From NCBI RefSeq assembly GCF_003018255.1, contig NZ_CP027440.1: DNA of 64,000 bases, one strand, 5' to 3'. The first letter of the stretch is position 1. Every line of letters starts with the position of its first letter. The position numbers were made by a program, and so were the translations under genes. Below are positions 1 through 60,395 of this stretch, piece after piece. The notes below the pieces were generated by a model. That model ran no database searches, was not told where the DNA came from, and saw nothing but the letters and a program-made list of their open reading frames with translations. Source of the stretch: Escherichia coli. GTDB taxonomy: Bacteria; Pseudomonadota; Gammaproteobacteria; Enterobacterales; Enterobacteriaceae.

Positions 1-843
<843 letters not shown>

Positions 844-846
844 CTA

Positions 847-868
847 AAACATAGCCTTTGCTATGTTT
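847..868. promoter_or_regulatory. Palindrome AAACATAGC-N4-GCTATGTTT upstream of mntH, consistent with the MntR operator
   Basis: Perfect inverted repeat seen in sequence 13 nt upstream of the mntH start; MntR-box assignment is from established knowledge of the mntH promoter. Confidence 0.5.
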
Positions 869-883
869 CATGCTATGTCAAAC

Positions 884-902
884 GAGAATGATTATCAAAT
901 TC
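884..902. promoter_or_regulatory. Fur-box-like site in mntH promoter region
   Basis: GAGAATGATTATCAAATTC matches about 14 of 19 positions of the Fur consensus GATAATGATAATCATTATC. Confidence 0.4.
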
Positions 903-1058
903 ATTTAAGTGGATTGTGATGATTTCTTTGATAGACCAGAATTATGACGACGAAAAGATTGATGACTTGAATGTTGTGATTATGTTTAATGTTAGCACAT
1001 TTACATAACTTTCAGCTTCCATACACAACATAGCAGAAATGTATGACAGCTCACTATT

Positions 1059-1074
1059 TTTGAAGCTTGTCACA
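1059..1074. promoter_or_regulatory. CRP-like half-site pair TTTGA-N6-TCACA upstream of nupC
   Basis: One mismatch to TGTGA-N6-TCACA; nupC is known to be CRP/CytR controlled; exact promoter geometry not resolved. Confidence 0.3.
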
Positions 1075-1169
1075 GGACGTCATTATAGTGTGTGTCAGAT
1101 CTCGTTTTCCTTAACCATGTTACATAGAATGTGCACGGAAATTTAACCTGCCTCATATTTGGAGCAAAT

Positions 1170-2372
1170 ATGGACCGCGTCCTTCATTTTGTACTGGCAC
1201 TTGCCGTTGTTGCGATTCTCGCACTGCTGGTAAGCAGCGACCGCAAAAAAATTCGTATCCGTTATGTTATTCAACTGCTTGTTATCGAAGTGTTACTGGC
1301 GTGGTTCTTCCTGAACTCCGACGTTGGTTTGGGCTTCGTGAAAGGCTTCTCCGAAATGTTTGAGAAACTGCTCGGATTTGCCAACGAAGGGACTAACTTC
1401 GTCTTTGGTAGCATGAATGATCAAGGCCTGGCATTCTTCTTCCTGAAAGTGCTGTGCCCAATCGTCTTTATCTCTGCGCTGATCGGTATTCTCCAGCACA
1501 TTCGCGTGTTGCCGGTGATTATCCGCGCAATTGGTTTCCTGCTCTCCAAAGTCAACGGTATGGGCAAACTGGAATCCTTTAACGCCGTCAGCTCCCTGAT
1601 TCTGGGTCAGTCTGAAAACTTTATTGCCTATAAAGATATCCTTGGCAAAATCTCCCGTAACCGTATGTACACCATGGCAGCAACGGCGATGTCCACCGTG
1701 TCGATGTCCATCGTTGGTGCATACATGACCATGCTGGAACCGAAATACGTCGTTGCAGCGCTGGTACTGAACATGTTCAGCACCTTTATCGTGCTGTCGC
1801 TGATCAACCCTTACCGTGTTGATGCCAGTGAAGAAAACATTCAGATGTCCAACCTGCACGAAGGTCAGAGCTTCTTCGAAATGCTGGGTGAATACATTCT
1901 GGCAGGTTTCAAAGTTGCCATTATCGTTGCCGCAATGCTGATCGGCTTTATCGCCCTGATCGCCGCGCTGAACGCACTGTTTGCTACCGTGACTGGCTGG
2001 TTTGGCTACAGCATCTCCTTCCAGGGCATCCTGGGCTACATCTTCTATCCGATTGCATGGGTGATGGGTGTTCCTTCCAGTGAAGCACTGCAAGTGGGCA
2101 GTATCATGGCGACCAAACTGGTTTCCAACGAGTTCGTTGCGATGATGGATCTGCAGAAAATTGCTTCCACGCTCTCTCCGCGTGCTGATGGCATCATCTC
2201 TGTGTTCCTGGTTTCCTTCGCTAACTTCTCATCAATCGGGATTATCGCAGGTGCAGTTAAAGGCCTGAATGAAGAGCAAGGTAACGTGGTTTCTCGCTTC
2301 GGTCTGAAACTGGTTTACGGCTCTACCCTGGTGAGTGTGCTGTCTGCGTCAATCGCAGCACTGGTGCTGTAA
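1170..2372 (+). CDS. nupC: Nucleoside:H+ symporter NupC (400 aa)
   Basis: ORF-track frame 1131..2372; start placed at ATG 1170 ([14 protein letters not shown]...) preceded by GGAG; CNT-family product recognised. Confidence 0.95.
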
Positions 2373-2382
2373 GACCATACAT

Positions 2383-2413
2383 AAAAAAGCCGGGGATAAT
2401 TCCCCGGTTTTTT
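2383..2413. terminator. Bidirectional intrinsic terminator between nupC and pdeA
   Basis: A-run, stem CCGGGGA / TCCCCGG with loop TAAT, then T-run; lies between convergent stop codons at 2372 and 2421. Confidence 0.7.
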
Positions 2414-2420
2414 ACGCCTG

Positions 2421-4610
2421 TTAATCAGCTAATGGCTGCGGGCGACCAATCAAATACCCTTGCAGATATTGCACCCCGAGCTTATGCAATAGCGCCTGCT
2501 GCTGTTGCGTCTCGACAAACTCCGCGACCACACTCAATGACTTCGCTTTCGCCAGATCGGTAATTGATCTCACAATCATCGCATCCAGCGTGTTCGTGAC
2601 GATATCTTTCACAAAGACGCCATCAATTTTGATGATATCAGCCTGCAAACGCTTTAACCGTTCGTAGTTGGCATATCCGGTGCCAAAGTCATCAATCGCA
2701 ATCCGGAAACCAAACTTATGCAGCTGCTCGATGTTGTACATGCTGCTTTCTGCGTTAGAAAACGCCTGCTCCTCGGTGATCTCAAGAATGACTGCCTGCG
2801 GGGAGATGTGATAACGCTTAAACAGACGAATAATCCGCCCGGCAATATTCTTTTGCAGCAGCGTGAGCGGCATTAAATTGACTGAAAAGCGCGGGCCTTT
2901 TTTGTCGCAAGGATGTGTTGCCAGCCACTTCAACAGGGATTCCAGCACTTGCAAATCAAAACGCGCGCTAAGGTTAAACTGAGCAATAAGGGGCAGAAAC
3001 TTATCCGGGGTCATAATGCCGCCGTCATATTTCAGTCGCGCGAGGATCTCATCATAACCTTCACCCTCTTTGTTGCGAATTGGCTGGGCGTAGAGCAGCA
3101 AATCACCCTGATCTAACGCCGTACGAATGGTATTCAGCAATAGCACCTGTTTAGTGGTCTGCCCGGAAACCATCTCCTCTCTGCTATCCAGCGCCAGCAC
3201 ATGGTGATGTGCGCAGGATTGCTCCGCCAGCCAGCTTAACTGCCCCAACAAGGGTTGCAGGGTTTCCTGATTTCCATCAAAACGCCCCCAGGCAGCACCA
3301 TAGCCCATATCCAGCCCGGTATTGTTCCAGTGAATTTGCCGACTATTCAGGATGTTAACCATATGCTGGAGTCGCCCTTCCGTTTCCGGTCCACTCAGCA
3401 CTAACAGCAGTTCACTACCCGGCAATTGATACAACTTTTCGTTTTCCTGCATCAACGGCAGCAGCGTACGGTAAATTGATCGGATACAGTGAACGCGCAT
3501 CATTAAGCCGTAATGACGACTCATAAACTCAAGATTATCAATGCGCAGGCAGCAAAAACTCTTGCCCGCCTCTTGCTCCGGCGCTTGTTCTAACGCACGA
3601 AAGTTGGGTAGGAGCGTTAACGGATCGGTCAGCGCCTGCAAATGCCAGCGGCGATTAAGCCATTCACTGCGATGATAAATGCGCACCATATAGAGCAGGC
3701 AAACGCTAAAGGAAATCAGCACCGCGAGAATAAATGCCAGCGAATATTCGGTTAGTACCCCTTGCAAAAAGTTCTGGTTGTAATTCAGCAGGCAAAGCGT
3801 TGAAACAGCCCAGGTGAGATTTAAAAACGGATAGCGAAGCTTACCGACACCGAGGGTAAAGATGATAAAGAAAACAGGTACCAGATAACCAGCAATAAAG
3901 TCATTTTCATACGGTGTGCACATCAGAAGTAGCAGCACGCTAAGAGCTGCCAGCCAGCTTAAGGTAAATGCGCGTTTCTCTTTGCTCAACGACGGAGCGA
4001 TATCCCTACGCCACAATATCTGTGCAAAGTGGGGACTTACAATCATGCGGGCGAGATAGTAAAAAAGCATGTTGTAAATCAGCACTGCGGTGAAAAGGCT
4101 TAGCAAATCAACGACCGTGAAAATGGCATCCGCATCGCCGAAAAAGGTAGATATCTTTAGCGGAAAATCAAAGAAATTTCCCACAAGATACATGCTGCAT
4201 TTGATGCCAATCGGCGCCACCAAACCAAGCCAGAAAAGACGTTGCCAGACATATCGGCTGGTCAATCCATAACGCCAACGCGTCCCCAGCTGCCAGCGTA
4301 ATATTGCGCAGGCACACAACACCACAAACGTCTGGCTGCCGAGCATGACCGCGGTCTGTAAAAAAGAGAGATGAAAGTTCCACAGATTGGTGCAAAACAT
4401 CCCGCATAAAACGGGGACGACACCGCGCCAGCCAAAGATAAACAAGATTGACAGCATTACGCACAGTGGCATCCACGCCAGAAAGATATAACTGGAGTGG
4501 ATAATGGCAAGTGGCGAAATAAAACGGGATAGCTGAATAAGTACCACGGTGAGCGTAAACGCTAGTGTGAATATCTTGATATTTTTTATCAGGTTATGCT
4601 CCACAAACAT
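2421..4610 (-). CDS. pdeA: c-di-GMP phosphodiesterase PdeA (YfeA): MASE1 membrane domain, degenerate GGDEF, EAL domain (729 aa)
   Basis: ORF-track 749-aa frame; start moved to internal ATG 4610 (MFVEHNLIK...); C-terminal EAL signatures YDEILARL and DDFGTGYA present, no GG(D/E)EF motif found. Confidence 0.88.
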   Translation of the reverse strand: MFVEHNLIKNIKIFTLAFTLTVVLIQLSRFISPLAIIHSSYIFLAWMPLCVMLSILFIFGWRGVVPVLCGMFCTNLWNFHLSFLQTAVMLGSQTFVVLCACAILRWQLGTRWRYGLTSRYVWQRLFWLGLVAPIGIKCSMYLVGNFFDFPLKISTFFGDADAIFTVVDLLSLFTAVLIYNMLFYYLARMIVSPHFAQILWRRDIAPSLSKEKRAFTLSWLAALSVLLLLMCTPYENDFIAGYLVPVFFIIFTLGVGKLRYPFLNLTWAVSTLCLLNYNQNFLQGVLTEYSLAFILAVLISFSVCLLYMVRIYHRSEWLNRRWHLQALTDPLTLLPNFRALEQAPEQEAGKSFCCLRIDNLEFMSRHYGLMMRVHCIRSIYRTLLPLMQENEKLYQLPGSELLLVLSGPETEGRLQHMVNILNSRQIHWNNTGLDMGYGAAWGRFDGNQETLQPLLGQLSWLAEQSCAHHHVLALDSREEMVSGQTTKQVLLLNTIRTALDQGDLLLYAQPIRNKEGEGYDEILARLKYDGGIMTPDKFLPLIAQFNLSARFDLQVLESLLKWLATHPCDKKGPRFSVNLMPLTLLQKNIAGRIIRLFKRYHISPQAVILEITEEQAFSNAESSMYNIEQLHKFGFRIAIDDFGTGYANYERLKRLQADIIKIDGVFVKDIVTNTLDAMIVRSITDLAKAKSLSVVAEFVETQQQQALLHKLGVQYLQGYLIGRPQPLAD

Positions 4611-4781
4611 GAGTACACTACTCTCACTGATCGGGGTTTTCAGGCACACAAATAATAAGTTTATTCGCATCGCGAAGCAAACAGGGGCCAGCCTGTTGCC
4701 GATTTTTCATCCAATGATGCTTTCACCAGGCGGCGCTAACCCGGACGTAGACTGTATTACAAAAGCGGCAAAAAGCAGAGA

Positions 4782-4812
4782 CAAAAAACCCCCGCTTTAC
4801 AGCGAGGGTTTG
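4782..4812 (-). terminator. Intrinsic terminator downstream of alaX
   Basis: On the minus strand, stem CCCTCGC / GCGGGGG (one G-U pair) followed by TTTTTT, immediately 3' of the tRNA. Confidence 0.5.
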
Positions 4813-4817
4813 AAATT

Positions 4818-4893
<76 letters not shown>

Positions 4894-4932
4894 ACGATGC
4901 GTTTACGTACCAAATTTGCTGGGTGCAAAATT

Positions 4933-5008
<76 letters not shown>

Positions 5009-5040
5009 ATCACGTAAAGCTTGTCGAGTTGACGGGCGGC

Positions 5041-5069
5041 ATCATATGAATTCCGCCCGAATGTGTCAA
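5041..5069 (-). promoter_or_regulatory. Sigma70 promoter of the alaW-alaX tRNA operon
   Basis: Minus strand TTGACA-N17-TATGAT followed by GC-rich discriminator GCCGCCCG, about 30 nt upstream of the alaW 5' end. Confidence 0.6.
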
Positions 5070-5243
5070 CGGCAAATTGCCACGTGTAGTTTCAATCGCT
5101 GAAAAATCAGGCAAATGAACAATTTTGGAAAACCGCTCGCATTCAGTAGTTATTCATGTCACGGTTTCCTGTAAAGTGGTGTTATAAAATGAACTACTAA
5201 TAGACCCACATACATTCAGGGAATTGTTATGTTCAAGGAGAGG

Positions 5244-5588
5244 ATGACGCCAGATGAACTTGCCAGACTGACCGGCTATAGCCGCCAGACCATTAATAAA
5301 TGGGTACGCAAGGAAGGCTGGACAACGTCACCAAAACCAGGCGTCCAGGGTGGCAAAGCTCGACTGGTTCACGTCAATGAACAGGTTCGTGAATATATTC
5401 GCAATGCTGAACGTCCAGAAGGTCAGGGAGAAGCGCCAGCCCTTTCTGGTGATGCGCCGCTTGAAGTGTTGCTGGTGACACTGGCGAAAGAGATGACGCC
5501 AGTTGAACAAAAACAGTTTACATCCTTGCTTCTGCGGGAAGGGATTATCGGATTGTTACAACGCTTAGGGATTCGCGATAGCAAATAA
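5244..5588 (+). CDS. yfeC: Putative DNA-binding protein YfeC (114 aa)
   Basis: ORF-track frame 5229..5588; start placed at ATG 5244 (MTPDELARL...) after AGGAGAGG; paralogous to the adjacent YfeD. Confidence 0.85.
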   Translation: MTPDELARLTGYSRQTINKWVRKEGWTTSPKPGVQGGKARLVHVNEQVREYIRNAERPEGQGEAPALSGDAPLEVLLVTLAKEMTPVEQKQFTSLLLREGIIGLLQRLGIRDSK

Positions 5589-5589
5589 T

Positions 5590-5982
5590 ATGAAAAGATT
5601 ACGCAATAAAATGACCACCGAAGAACTGGCTGAATGCCTCGGTGTGGCTAAACAAACTGTTAACCGTTGGATCAGAGAAAAAGGCTGGAAAACGGAAAAA
5701 TTTCCCGGCGTGAAAGGCGGTCGTGCCAGACTTATTCTGGTCGATACGCAAGTTTGCGAGTTTATTCAGAACACGCCAGCCTTCCATAACACACCGATGC
5801 TTCTGGAAGCCGAAGAACCCCTTGCCGAATACGCACCGGGTATTCGCACTCCTGCTTATCGGCAAATCATCAGCGCAATAGACAACATGACTCACAGTGA
5901 GCAGGAAAAAGTTGCGCAATTTTTGTCACGCGAAGGAATTCGTAATTTCCTTGCTCGTCTCGACATAGATGAATCAGAATAA
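5590..5982 (+). CDS. yfeD: Putative DNA-binding protein YfeD (130 aa)
   Basis: ORF-track 5590..5982; N-terminal half alignable with YfeC; starts 1 nt after the yfeC stop. Confidence 0.85.
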   Translation: MKRLRNKMTTEELAECLGVAKQTVNRWIREKGWKTEKFPGVKGGRARLILVDTQVCEFIQNTPAFHNTPMLLEAEEPLAEYAPGIRTPAYRQIISAIDNMTHSEQEKVAQFLSREGIRNFLARLDIDESE

Positions 5983-5984
5983 AT

Positions 5985-6024
5985 AAAAAACGGCAGGGGT
6001 ATCTCTCCTGCCGTTTATCTTTTA
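5985..6024. terminator. Bidirectional intrinsic terminator between yfeD and gltX
   Basis: A-run, stem CGGCAGG / CCTGCCG, then TTTATCTTTT; between convergent stops at 5982 and 6033. Confidence 0.7.
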
Positions 6025-6032
6025 TGCGCTAA

Positions 6033-7448
6033 TTATTGCTGATTTTCGCGTTCAGCAATAAAAGCCAGCGCTTTGTTGATACGCTCGATACTGCGGGTCT
6101 TACCGATTGCGTGAACGGTAACATCCAGCGCCGGAGACTGCCCCGCACCGGTTACGGCGACACGCAGCGGCATACCAACTTTACCCATACCCACTTCCAG
6201 CTCATCCGCCGTCGCCTGAATAGCGTGATGAACGTTTTCAGCGGTCCAGTCAGTAATCGCAGTCAGTTTGTCACGAACCACTTCCAGCGGCTGACGCGCT
6301 ACCGGACGCAGATGTTTTTTCGCGGCGTCGGCATCGAACTCAGCAAAATCTTCGTAGAAATAACGGCAGCTCTGTGCCATCTCTTTCAGCGTCTTGCAGC
6401 GTTCGCCCAGCAGTTTCACCAGATCAGCCAGCTGCGGGCCGTTACGGGTATCGATATTTTCCTGCTCAATGTGCCATTGTAAGTGAGTAGCAACATACTC
6501 CGGCGGCAGCGCGTTAATGTAGTGATGGTTCAGCCACAGCAGCTTGTCGGTGTTGAACGCACTGGCAGATTTGCTGACGGCATTCAGAGTGAAGTATTTG
6601 ATCATCTCTTCACGAGTGAAGATTTCCTGATCGCCGTGGGACCAGCCCAGACGCACCAGATAGTTCAGCAGTGCTTCTGGCAAATAACCGTCATCACGAT
6701 ACTGCATTACGCTGACCGCCCCGTGACGTTTGGACAGTTTTTTACCGTCATCGCCGTTGATCATAGAAACGTGCGCGTAAACCGGTACCGGCGCTTTCAG
6801 GGCTTTAAGAATGTTGATCTGGCGCGGCGTGTTGTTGATATGGTCTTCGCCACGGATAACATGGGTGATTTCCATATCCCAGTCATCAACAACCACACAG
6901 AAGTTATAGGTTGGGGAACCATCGGTACGGCGAATGATCAGATCATCCAGCTCCTGGTTGCTGAACTCAATCGGGCCACGGATCTGATCGTCAAAAACAA
7001 CAGAACCTTCCTGCGGGTTAGCAAAACGTACAACGCACGGTTCATCATCAGCATGATGCTCATGGCTGTGGCGGCAGCGACCGTCATAACGCGGCTTCTC
7101 ACCTTTCGCCATTTGCTCTTCGCGCAGCGCTTCCAGGCGCTCTTTAGAACAATAGCATTTATAAGCTGTGCCCTCTTCCAGCATCTGATCGATCACCGCG
7201 TTGTAGCGATCAAAACGTTTGGTCTGGTAGTACGGACCTTCATCCCACTCCAGGCTCAGCCAGTTCATGCCATCCATAATGGCTTCGATAGCTTCCGGCG
7301 TGGAACGCTCAAGATCGGTGTCTTCAATACGCAGCACGAACTCACCGCCGTGGTTACGTGCAAAAAGCCAGGAGTAAAGAGCAGTACGCGCGCCGCCAAC
7401 GTGCAGATAGCCTGTTGGGCTTGGCGCGAAGCGAGTTTTGATTTTCAT
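6033..7448 (-). CDS. gltX: Glutamyl-tRNA synthetase (471 aa)
   Basis: ORF-track; [31 protein letters not shown]... with class I HVGG motif. Confidence 0.97.
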
Positions 7449-7661
7449 GAAATGGCCTTACGTTTAGAAAGATGCCGACAACCGGCAAATCCTGGAAAAA
7501 TTGAGTGGGCGATATTCTATCACTCCCGCCTGATTCCTCAATGTAGTTCGGGTTGCAACCTTACGCATTATTGTTTTCGTTGACAAATTGCGCAACACGG
7601 TCTGTTTTGCGATCATCTTGCTTAAATTTACGACGAACGAACAATTTCTTTAGAAAATGCG

Positions 7662-7689
7662 TTGACTCATTTTGAACTCTCCCTATAAT
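7662..7689 (+). promoter_or_regulatory. Sigma70 promoter of the valU-valX-valY-lysV tRNA operon
   Basis: TTGACT-N16-TATAAT with AT-rich upstream region; -10 ends 17 nt before the first tRNA. Confidence 0.65.
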
Positions 7690-7706
7690 GCGACTCCACA
7701 CAGCGG

Positions 7707-7782
7707 GGGTGATTAGCTCAGCTGGGAGAGCACCTCCCTTACAAGGAGGGGGTCGGCGGTTCGATCCCGTCATCACCCACCA
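7707..7782 (+). tRNA. valU: tRNA-Val (UAC)
   Basis: GGGTGATTAGCTCAGCTGGGAGAGCACCTCCCTTACAAGGAGGGGGTCGGCGGTTCGATCCCGTCATCACCCACCA, 76 nt. Confidence 0.95.
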
Positions 7783-7826
7783 ACTACTTTATGTAGTCTC
7801 CGCCGTGTAGCAAGAAATTGAGAAGT

Positions 7827-7902
7827 GGGTGATTAGCTCAGCTGGGAGAGCACCTCCCTTACAAGGAGGGGGTCGGCGGTTCGATCCCGTCATCACCCAC
7901 CA
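7827..7902 (+). tRNA. valX: tRNA-Val (UAC), copy 2
   Basis: Identical 76-nt sequence. Confidence 0.95.
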
Positions 7903-7948
7903 CTTTCTCGCCAGCTAGATTTCTTGTAACAATGTGAAGTACCGAAGT

Positions 7949-8024
7949 GGGTGATTAGCTCAGCTGGGAGAGCACCTCCCTTACAAGGAGGGGGTCGGCG
8001 GTTCGATCCCGTCATCACCCACCA
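7949..8024 (+). tRNA. valY: tRNA-Val (UAC), copy 3
   Basis: Identical 76-nt sequence. Confidence 0.95.
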
Positions 8025-8028
8025 CTTC

Positions 8029-8104
8029 GGGTCGTTAGCTCAGTTGGTAGAGCAGTTGACTTTTAATCAATTGGTCGCAGGTTCGAATCCTGCACGACCC
8101 ACCA
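8029..8104 (+). tRNA. lysV: tRNA-Lys (UUU)
   Basis: GGGTCGTTAGCTCAGTTGGTAGAGCAGTTGACTTTTAATCAATTGGTCGCAGGTTCGAATCCTGCACGACCCACCA, 76 nt, 4 nt after valY. Confidence 0.95.
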
Positions 8105-8110
8105 ATGTAA

Positions 8111-8136
8111 AAAAGCGCCCTAAAGGCGCTTTTTTG
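8111..8136 (+). terminator. Intrinsic terminator of the val/lys tRNA operon
   Basis: Stem AGCGCC / GGCGCT with loop CTAAA followed by TTTTTT. Confidence 0.75.
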
Positions 8137-8214
8137 CTATCTGCAATTTGCGAAATTGCCTGATGCGCTTCGCTTATCAGACCAACTATGTCCGGCAGTT
8201 CCCGTGCCTCTCAT

Positions 8215-9099
8215 CTACTGCGCCAACGCCGCCAGCAGTTTAACCAGCGCGGGCGTCACCTGCTGCGTTTCATAAACAATATATAAGTCTGCCGGGATGC
8301 GTTCTTTGAGCGGACGGAATATGACACCGGGCCAGTTCATCTGCGCGTAGCTGTCCGCTATCAATGTGATACCAATACCCATACTGACCATGGCGAGTAC
8401 CGTTTGCGGTTCATTAACTTCGCGAATAACAACCGGTGAAAATCCCACCTGCTGGCAAACTCGCTGCAAAAAATCCCAGTCAGTGTACACGGGCGGCATT
8501 GTAACGAAATACTCGTCACGTAGCGCTTCCAGCGGGACGGTGGAAAATGATGAGAGATGATGCTCTTCAGGCATCGCCACCAGAAACGCCGATTCATGCA
8601 ACCGTAAGCTGGTAAAACCAGTCGGTGGTTCTGTCGCCATTCGCCAGATCCCGGCATCAAGTTCGCGGCGTTCCAGCAAGGCCATTTGCATCGCAGGCAT
8701 CTTTTCGCGAAACAGAACTTCAACGTTAGGATTTTCTCTAAGGAATCGCCGCATAACCGGGCGCATCCGTCCCCACATTGCCGTTCCCACAACCCCGAGT
8801 TCAATCCGCCCTGCTTCTCCCCGACCTATTTGTTCAACCCGAGCCAATACATTATTTGCATTCACCAACAATCGACGCGATTCTTCCATCAAGATTTTGC
8901 CCGCGTGTGTCAGTACGACGCTGCGCGAATGGCGAATAAAAAGCTGCGTGCCGAGTTGATTTTCCAGCTCTTTAATATGAATGCTGAGCGGAGGCTGAGA
9001 CATATTTAAACGCGCTGCTGCGCGACCAAAATGCAACTCTTCCGCTACGGCAAGAAAATAACGGAGCAACTTAAGATCTGTTCTGTATACGCGTTCCAT
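8215..9099 (-). CDS. xapR: LysR-family activator of the xanthosine operon, XapR (294 aa)
   Basis: ORF-track frame 8215..9114; start placed at ATG 9099 (MERVYRTDLKLLRYFLAVAEELHFGRAAARL...); N-terminal HTH. Confidence 0.9.
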   Translation of the reverse strand: MERVYRTDLKLLRYFLAVAEELHFGRAAARLNMSQPPLSIHIKELENQLGTQLFIRHSRSVVLTHAGKILMEESRRLLVNANNVLARVEQIGRGEAGRIELGVVGTAMWGRMRPVMRRFLRENPNVEVLFREKMPAMQMALLERRELDAGIWRMATEPPTGFTSLRLHESAFLVAMPEEHHLSSFSTVPLEALRDEYFVTMPPVYTDWDFLQRVCQQVGFSPVVIREVNEPQTVLAMVSMGIGITLIADSYAQMNWPGVIFRPLKERIPADLYIVYETQQVTPALVKLLAALAQ

Positions 9100-23974: not shown

Positions 23975-24343
23975 ATGAAGAAAATCATTTGTCTGGTCAT
24001 TACGCTGCTAATGACACTCCCCGTTTACGCGAAGTTAACTGCCCATGAAGAAGCCCGTATCAACGCCATGCTGGAGGGATTAGCACAGAAAAAGGATTTG
24101 ATATTTGTGCGTAACGGCGATGAACATACCTGCGATGAAGCGGTTTCCCACCTGCGTCTGAAGCTCGGCAATACCCGTAACCGCATTGACACTGCCGAGC
24201 AGTTTATTGATAAGGTAGCCTCGTCGTCATCGATTACCGGGAAGCCGTATATCGTGAAGATGCCCGGTAAAAGCGATGAGAACGCACAACCTTTTTTACA
24301 TGCGCTGATTGCGCAGACGGATAAAACGGTGCCTGCGCAATAA
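23975..24343 (+). CDS. yfeK: Uncharacterised secreted protein YfeK (122 aa)
   Basis: ORF-track; signal peptide [19 protein letters not shown]. Confidence 0.8.
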
Positions 24344-29202: not shown

Positions 29203-29359
29203 TGCGCACCCTTATAAATTTAATGACTTTCTAATAGCCATCATATTTATAACGGACGTGAAAGGAGTAACGGTTTTATATACCGTTTGGTGATTTGGAA
29301 GTTGAAAAGGGAATAAGACGAAATCCTCCCCACAAATGCAGGGAGGAAACAGAGGTGAA

Positions 29360-34932: not shown

Positions 34933-34969
34933 AAAAAGGCCAGTCAGTTGTGATACTGGCTGGCCTTTA
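34933..34969. terminator. Hairpin between convergent yfeW and yfeX (probable bidirectional terminator)
   Basis: Imperfect stem GGCCAGTCAG / CTGGCTGGCC flanked by A-run and TTTAAT. Confidence 0.55.
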
Positions 34970-60293: not shown

Positions 60294-60395
60294 TGGTGAT
60301 CGCCGGATGCTATATGTTCCCCTCACCCTAACCCTCTCCCCAGAGGGGCGAGGGGACGGTCCGTGCGCTTTTTAGGGGCGCATCTGGGATTTTGT

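Follow-up and report, generated by a model that had tools for sequence, protein, structure and literature searches.

The window analysed in this study, i.e. the whole stretch of 64,000 nucleotides of Escherichia coli DNA, contains the convergent genes nupC and pdeA (also named yfeA). According to the ORF list and the sequence, the TAA stop codon of nupC occupies positions 2370-2372 on the plus strand and the TAA stop codon of pdeA positions 2421-2423 on the minus strand, so that the spacer between them comprises exactly the 48 nt from 2373 to 2420. The genes and the features of the spacer are the following:

1170-2372, plus strand: coding sequence of nupC, nucleoside:H+ symporter (ORF list; clean translation of 400 amino acids)
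2373-2420, no strand assigned: intergenic spacer of 48 nt between the convergent stop codons (sequence and ORF list)
2383-2388, no strand assigned: run of six A, predicted template of the U-tract of the pdeA transcript and putative left arm of an IS4-type target (sequence; predicted to pair with the T-run)
2389-2408, no strand assigned: palindromic stem-loop GCCGGGGA-TAAT-TCCCCGGT, predicted terminator hairpin for both transcripts (fold energies, terminator scan)
2392-2405, no strand assigned: GGGGATAATTCCCC, GGGG-ATAATT-CCCC, a perfect IS186 target motif GGGG(N6)CCCC (motif scan)
2393-2404, no strand assigned: GGGATAATTCCC, target-site duplication segment that flanks IS186C in K-12 and IS4 in strain VR50 and is single in the window (overlap of the K-12 alignment; junction sequences)
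2408-2413, no strand assigned: run of six T, predicted U-tract of the nupC transcript and putative right arm of an IS4-type target (sequence)
2421-4610, minus strand: coding sequence of pdeA, c-di-GMP phosphodiesterase (ORF list; clean translation of 729 amino acids)

The nupC start at 1170 is equivalent to that of K-12, the mechanically called ORF opening at a GTG at 1131, and the gene aligns without gaps with K-12 nupC (2513042-2514244). Likewise, the start of pdeA is the K-12-equivalent one (K-12 pdeA 2515643-2517832), with an open frame that extends to an ATG at 4670. Among the RefSeq genomes matching the window, nupC was annotated under the match in every best hit, and pdeA was annotated in hits as well. 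The spacer reads GACCATACAT-AAAAAA-GCCGGGGA-TAAT-TCCCCGGT-TTTTT-ACGCCTG, with the T6 run starting on the last base of the stem at 2408. Coordinates, sequence and folding of both strands agree with the first-pass annotation, which had described a 48-nt spacer with a single hairpin between an A-run and a T-run.

The stem-loop at 2389-2408 consists of seven Watson-Crick pairs plus a closing G.U pair and a loop of 4 nt. Folded as RNA, the plus strand reached -20.8 kcal/mol (z = -5.7) and the minus strand -23.7 kcal/mol (z = -5.0), and in either case none of 200 shuffled sequences was as stable. A consensus scan rated the hairpin as terminator-like on both strands, a U-tract directly follows the stem in both transcripts (A6 at 2383-2388 and T6 at 2408-2413), and the hairpin lies directly downstream of the two convergent coding sequences of nupC and pdeA. 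The length of the T-run differs among strains, with six T in the window, seven in K-12-type alleles and eight in strain E686. No Rfam family was found at the hairpin in a scan of positions 1-9000 of the window, which returned six tRNAs only. Since the promoter and terminator scan of the region yielded five terminator-like sites against 4.8 expected, i.e. no overall excess, the terminator call rests on the strength and position of the hairpin itself. In its anatomy, it resembles the bidirectional intrinsic terminators of convergent bacterial genes, which likewise have a GC-rich palindromic stem, a short loop, an A-tract upstream and a T-tract downstream; it is also placed as they are, 11-17 nt after each stop codon, and we found no anatomical difference at the level of the sequence. 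In both transcripts, the GC-rich palindrome would fold into the same hairpin, with a 3' U-tract supplied by the T-run for nupC and by the A-run for pdeA; the hairpin probably terminates transcription from both genes in vivo.

In K-12 MG1655, the corresponding position is occupied. The record (NC_000913.3) lists 'insertion sequence:IS186C' at 2514273-2515617, with insL3 (b2394), between nupC (b2393) and pdeA (b2395). Aligned by blastn with K-12, the window breaks at 2404 and restarts at 2393, an overlap of 12 nt, from which it follows that K-12 2514277-2515613 (1,337 bp) has no counterpart in the window and that GGGATAATTCCC is present once in the window and twice in K-12. The K-12 junctions read ...GCCGGGGATAATTCC(C) before IS186 and (G)GGATAATTCCCCGG... 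after it, or, in a longer reading, ...AAAAAAGCCGGGGATAATTCC(C), followed by ATAAGCGCTAACTTAAGGGTTG...CAACCCTTAAGTTAGCGCTTAT of the element and (G)GGATAATTCCCCGGTTTTTTT... on the other side; because the base at each end of the element is ambiguous, the duplicated segment can be read as 10-12 bp. The insertion point is the middle of the hairpin. The two half-sites left in K-12 are no more stable than their shuffled counterparts (z = -0.7 and 0.0), indicating that both nupC and pdeA are without this predicted terminator in K-12. The chromosomal position of IS186C in MG1655 is thus identical to the site in the window to the base, whereas the window has no element, an unduplicated target, an intact hairpin and a T-run of six rather than seven. 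As the first-pass annotation had stated, no insertion sequence is present at the junction: blastn searches of the whole window with IS186 and IS4 were empty, and the K-12 alignment spans the junction except for K-12 2514277-2515613. Its further statement that K-12 has an insertion sequence near this position is borne out by the MG1655 record.

IS186 is highly specific for the target 5'-GGGG(N6/N7)CCCC-3', of which the K-12 genome contains only 19 sites with the N6 spacing; 59 new IS186 insertion sites were found in K-12 mutation-accumulation lines, fimA and menC being hot spots (Lee et al., 2016; PMC5009759). The palindromic nature of the motif allows IS186 to insert in either orientation (PMC5009759). 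Another hot spot was assigned to the lon promoter (SaiSree et al., 2001, as cited in PMC3045373 and PMC3861542). Positions 2392-2405 are the sole N6 or N7 instance of this motif in the 64-kb window, and the site thus combines a perfect N6 motif with insertions in both orientations (see below), as described for palindromic targets (PMC5009759). The hot spots in fimA, menC and lon were defined experimentally in K-12, where the nupC-pdeA site is already occupied, whereas the recurrence at nupC-pdeA is seen across natural isolates and in two hairpin alleles. The literature that we searched yielded no description of the nupC-pdeA (yfeA) site as an IS186 hot spot, which is weak evidence of novelty. 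The hairpin itself is an insertion sequence target, a point that was absent from the first-pass annotation.

In strain VR50, an IS4 of 1,426 bp lies at the same dyad as IS186 and is flanked by a 12-bp duplication. The target consensus of IS4 is reportedly AAA-N20-TTT, as Mayaux and colleagues are said to have described in 1984. This pattern is present in two registers at the nupC-pdeA hairpin. At other loci, the IS4 target in dgcM of NCTC86 reads, from left to right, AAAAAAGCG, CGCATAAAAACC and TTGTTTTTT, and the one in rcdA of FDAARGOS_1288 reads AAAAAATGC, CTGATATTGCCG and GGACATG. In both copies the A-run ends 3 nt before the 12-bp duplication, a T-run follows 3 nt after it in dgcM only, and neither target has the G4/C4 arms. 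The core at nupC-pdeA, with an A-run 3-4 nt to its left and a T-run 3 nt to its right, corresponds to the dgcM site, and it shares the 11-13 bp duplication class of IS4. An A-rich left arm together with a T-rich right arm is thus found at nupC-pdeA and dgcM and a left arm alone at rcdA, a comparison that covers three sites; likewise, the putative match of nupC-pdeA to the specificity of IS4 refers to the consensus as reported and to just 16 genomes with IS4 at the site. A review of the IS4 family describes striking conservation of the target arms in elements of the IS4 subgroup (De Palmenaer et al., 2008; PMC2266710). The flanks of IS4 and IS186 copies at dgcM, rcdA, yeaR in BL21 and on plasmids align with 14-25 nt of the hairpin arm at 89-97% identity. 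These arm matches at such different loci show that the targets of IS4 and IS186 are stereotyped.

With regard to the mechanism, IS186 would recognise the GGGG...CCCC arms at their 6-bp spacing, and IS4 would, as it appears, prefer an A-run and a T-run flanking a duplicated core of 12-13 bp; it is from the sequences that we infer that the two transposases read these features. Both would make staggered cuts centred on the dyad of the hairpin, by which the loop and the inner stem (GGGATAATTCCC) would be duplicated and the terminator split. As a bidirectional terminator combines an A-tract, a GC palindrome and a T-tract on one dyad, it would be able to satisfy both recognition rules.

As a census of the site, a query of 1,048 nt centred on the spacer was compared with 5,426 complete E. 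coli genomes, 5,424 of which matched. The junction was uninterrupted, defined as free of insertions above about 1 kb, in 4,460 of the 5,424 genomes (82%). The other 964 gave a match that stopped at window position 2404 or covered only part of the query, so that the junction is interrupted in about 18% of complete genomes. Chimeric queries made of 150 nt of nupC flank and 150 nt of an element end detected the nupC-side junction of IS186 in the K-12 (forward) orientation in 472 genomes and in the reverse orientation in 465, and that of IS4 in orientation a in 10 and in orientation b in 6. IS186, present in K-12 and 936 others, and IS4, present in 16, together account for 953 of the 964 interrupted genomes, and in about 11 the interruption on the nupC side is neither IS186 nor IS4. 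One of these leftover genomes, ST2747 (locus L003, 3700-3910), has lost nupC altogether, and mntH/ypeD is directly followed by pdeA.

These are counts of genomes and not of events. A spread sample of 11 rows from the forward class consisted mostly of recognisable K-12 laboratory derivatives (RR1, MC1061, TG1, O16:H48 and others), and judging from this sample the 472 forward genomes may largely reflect laboratory strains. The reverse class consists of natural isolates, e.g. ATCC 8739, E. coli C, H10407 and HUSEC2011. A shorter query of 54 nt covering only the junction matched 1,127 genomes at a coverage of at least 80%, a figure that is not clean because this query also matched other IS186 copies with similar flanks; it served as a sample of strain names only.

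To tell separate insertion events apart, we compared the junctions and flanks of 16 loci. The 3-kb flanks of K-12 (forward) do not differ from those of ATCC 8739 (reverse), and the opposite orientations on one haplotype point to two IS186 events. In HUSEC2011 (reverse) and PK8568 (forward), IS186 lies in a variant hairpin allele, GGGGATCATTCCCC, also read as GCCGGGGATCATTCCCCGGC. The variant C is present in both duplicated copies in both strains, which means that the target already had it when IS186 inserted and adds two further IS186 events. The loop of this second E. coli allele (HUSEC2011, locus L036, about 3500-3530; PK8568, locus L041) is TCAT instead of TAAT, its closing pair is G-C rather than G.T, CTTTTTT follows the stem, and it still fits GGGG(N6)CCCC; it is occupied by IS186 in both orientations. 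IS4 with a 12-bp duplication was found in VR50 and SWYHX138, which have a K-12-type flank, and in AR_0013, which has a flank 57 SNPs away and a T6 run. In the other orientation and with a 13-bp duplication, it was found in 23CRST047 (K-12-type flank) and in E686 (35 SNPs away, T8 run). In MEI4BO-21, an IS4 with a 13-bp duplication adjoins a reverse IS186. The order in this tandem (locus L007, 3522-6330) is flank, IS4, GGGGATAATTCCC, reverse IS186, flank; a half-site left by one element was taken up by the other. From the orientations, duplication lengths, hairpin alleles and flank haplotypes, we count a minimum of four events for IS186 and of three, possibly five, for IS4. EC96 and 510016 were considered as separate forward IS186 events and rejected: they differ from K-12 by 23-24 SNPs that are all in the left flank (0-1 SNP in the right flank), which makes recombination the simpler reading. 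Recombination can move occupied alleles between lineages.

Outside of E. coli, a scan of 100,044 species genomes for the exact palindrome gave 20 matches, and only those in Escherichia, namely E. whittamii and Escherichia sp. E1V33, are homologous. The matches outside Escherichia were rejected as homologues because their contexts are unrelated. Strain E1V33, which represents a separate species, carries the hairpin once and without interruption; the stem of this hairpin is perfect over 8 bp, and the flanks are about 6% divergent. In E. whittamii Sa2BVA5 (locus L030, 9249-9444), there are two complete copies of the hairpin GCCGGGGATAATTCCCCGGC between nupC and pdeA, at a distance of 177 nt. They flank an insert of about 157 bp with two REP-like palindromes and constitute a 20-bp duplication; this is an insertion of another kind in the same place. 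We know of no insertion sequence that would make such a 20-bp duplication.

Taken together, the spacer of the window very probably represents a single bidirectional Rho-independent terminator, by prediction, that is at the same time an unoccupied IS186/IS4 target, in what is probably the ancestral state, here found in a non-K-12 E. coli. We consider it very unlikely that the palindrome serves primarily for the binding of a protein, or that it belongs to a dispersed, REP-like repeat family and lies between the two genes by chance. The perfect symmetry of the palindrome, the REP-containing insert between the two hairpin copies of E. whittamii and the occurrence of the 19-mer in unrelated bacteria are compatible with such an origin. 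However, the palindrome is single-copy in the window, it comes right after two convergent stop codons in an A6/T6 frame that REP elements lack, it has no Rfam match, and the matches in unrelated phyla amount to 20 in 298 Gb and lie in unrelated contexts. As to the nature of the K-12 element, the first-pass annotation had named an IS5 copy near the junction that the window would lack. An insertion sequence is indeed there, at the exact position, but it is annotated as IS186C/insL3 and has IS186-type ends (ATAAGCGCTAACTTAAGGGTTG...) and a duplication of 10-12 bp. Nor is any IS5 annotated in K-12 2511000-2590000, in three stretches that together cover the counterpart of the window, and an IS5 at or near the K-12 junction can be practically discounted.

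The first-pass annotation had also left the arrangement as either non-K-12 or ancestral. The divergence of the window from K-12 (roughly 65 kb align, at about 96.7% identity) agrees with the former. As for the latter, an ancestral origin is the best reading of the empty state because the target is unduplicated, 4,460 of 5,424 genomes share this state, and E1V33 has a single uninterrupted hairpin. It could be argued that IS186 or IS4 was once present in this lineage and was lost by a precise excision that restored the hairpin, as IS186 was reported to have excised precisely from the lon promoter (PMC3861542) and the restored sequence would be indistinguishable from a site that was never occupied. 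In mutation-accumulation lines, however, excision accounted for only 1 of 857 insertion sequence events (PMC5009759). The majority state and the single hairpin of E1V33 speak against it as well, the 64-kb window contains no IS186 or IS4 sequence detectable by blastn, and its flank haplotype differs by 50 SNPs per 3 kb from the one in which most insertions are found. Such a derived origin of the empty site is highly improbable in our view. It is also conceivable, albeit rather unlikely, that the hairpin serves as a shared recurrent landing pad for several unrelated mechanisms, i.e. IS186 with its G4/C4 arms, IS4 with its A/T arms and the REP-containing insert of E. whittamii, which would be drawn by DNA structure (a cruciform or hairpin between convergent units) rather than by sequence alone. 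Occupancy would then be partly kept by selection, since splitting the terminator would alter the expression of nupC and/or of the c-di-GMP-related pdeA.

As a predicted two-way terminator that is intact and the empty form of a known IS186 target, the feature of the window is ordinary and already explained. That IS186 and IS4 have repeatedly used one hairpin in wild E. coli illustrates published target rules and is not a phenomenon of a new kind; it provides a natural example of how one bidirectional terminator could, on a single dyad, satisfy the target rules of two different IS4-family transposases. The comparison also corrects a mistaken annotation, IS186C instead of IS5, and confirms that the window stems from an E. 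coli other than K-12, whose arrangement is, on the best reading, ancestral. Since both genes have lost their shared predicted terminator in K-12, K-12 transcript maps are unfit for judging termination of nupC and pdeA in wild strains. The junction is highly polymorphic, with about 18% of genomes interrupted, two elements, two orientations, tandem forms and two hairpin alleles, and could thus be used as a quick lineage or strain marker.

The closest complete genomes to the window are those of strains 200164 and E04 (99.8%), and only 16 records reach 99%. The window differs from K-12 at several further positions. The absence of CPZ-55, on which the first-pass annotation had also relied, was confirmed: K-12 2558710-2565480 is missing at window 44035-44057. 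This is the empty attachment site, between eutB and eutA, of this 6.8-kb cryptic prophage (intZ-yffS), and the 23-nt overlap of the alignment blocks at these positions corresponds to the direct repeat that flanks CPZ-55 in K-12. At window 24337-24341, K-12 2537705-2538665 (961 bp), which holds yfeS (b2420), is without counterpart, and yfeK is then almost directly followed by the cysM side. The eutH-eutG spacer (window 46692-46976) contains one extra copy of a repeat of about 85-100 nt compared with K-12, so that K-12 2568138-2568322 aligns in two registers. In the cysP-ucpA spacer, K-12 2543645-2543786 is absent at window 29315-29318, in the yfeW-yfeX spacer, K-12 2549439-2549593 is absent at window 34937-34963, and the tktB-ypfG spacer (window 60312-60388, K-12 2581658-2581726) gave no alignment; REP-type elements are likely behind the differences in these three spacers.
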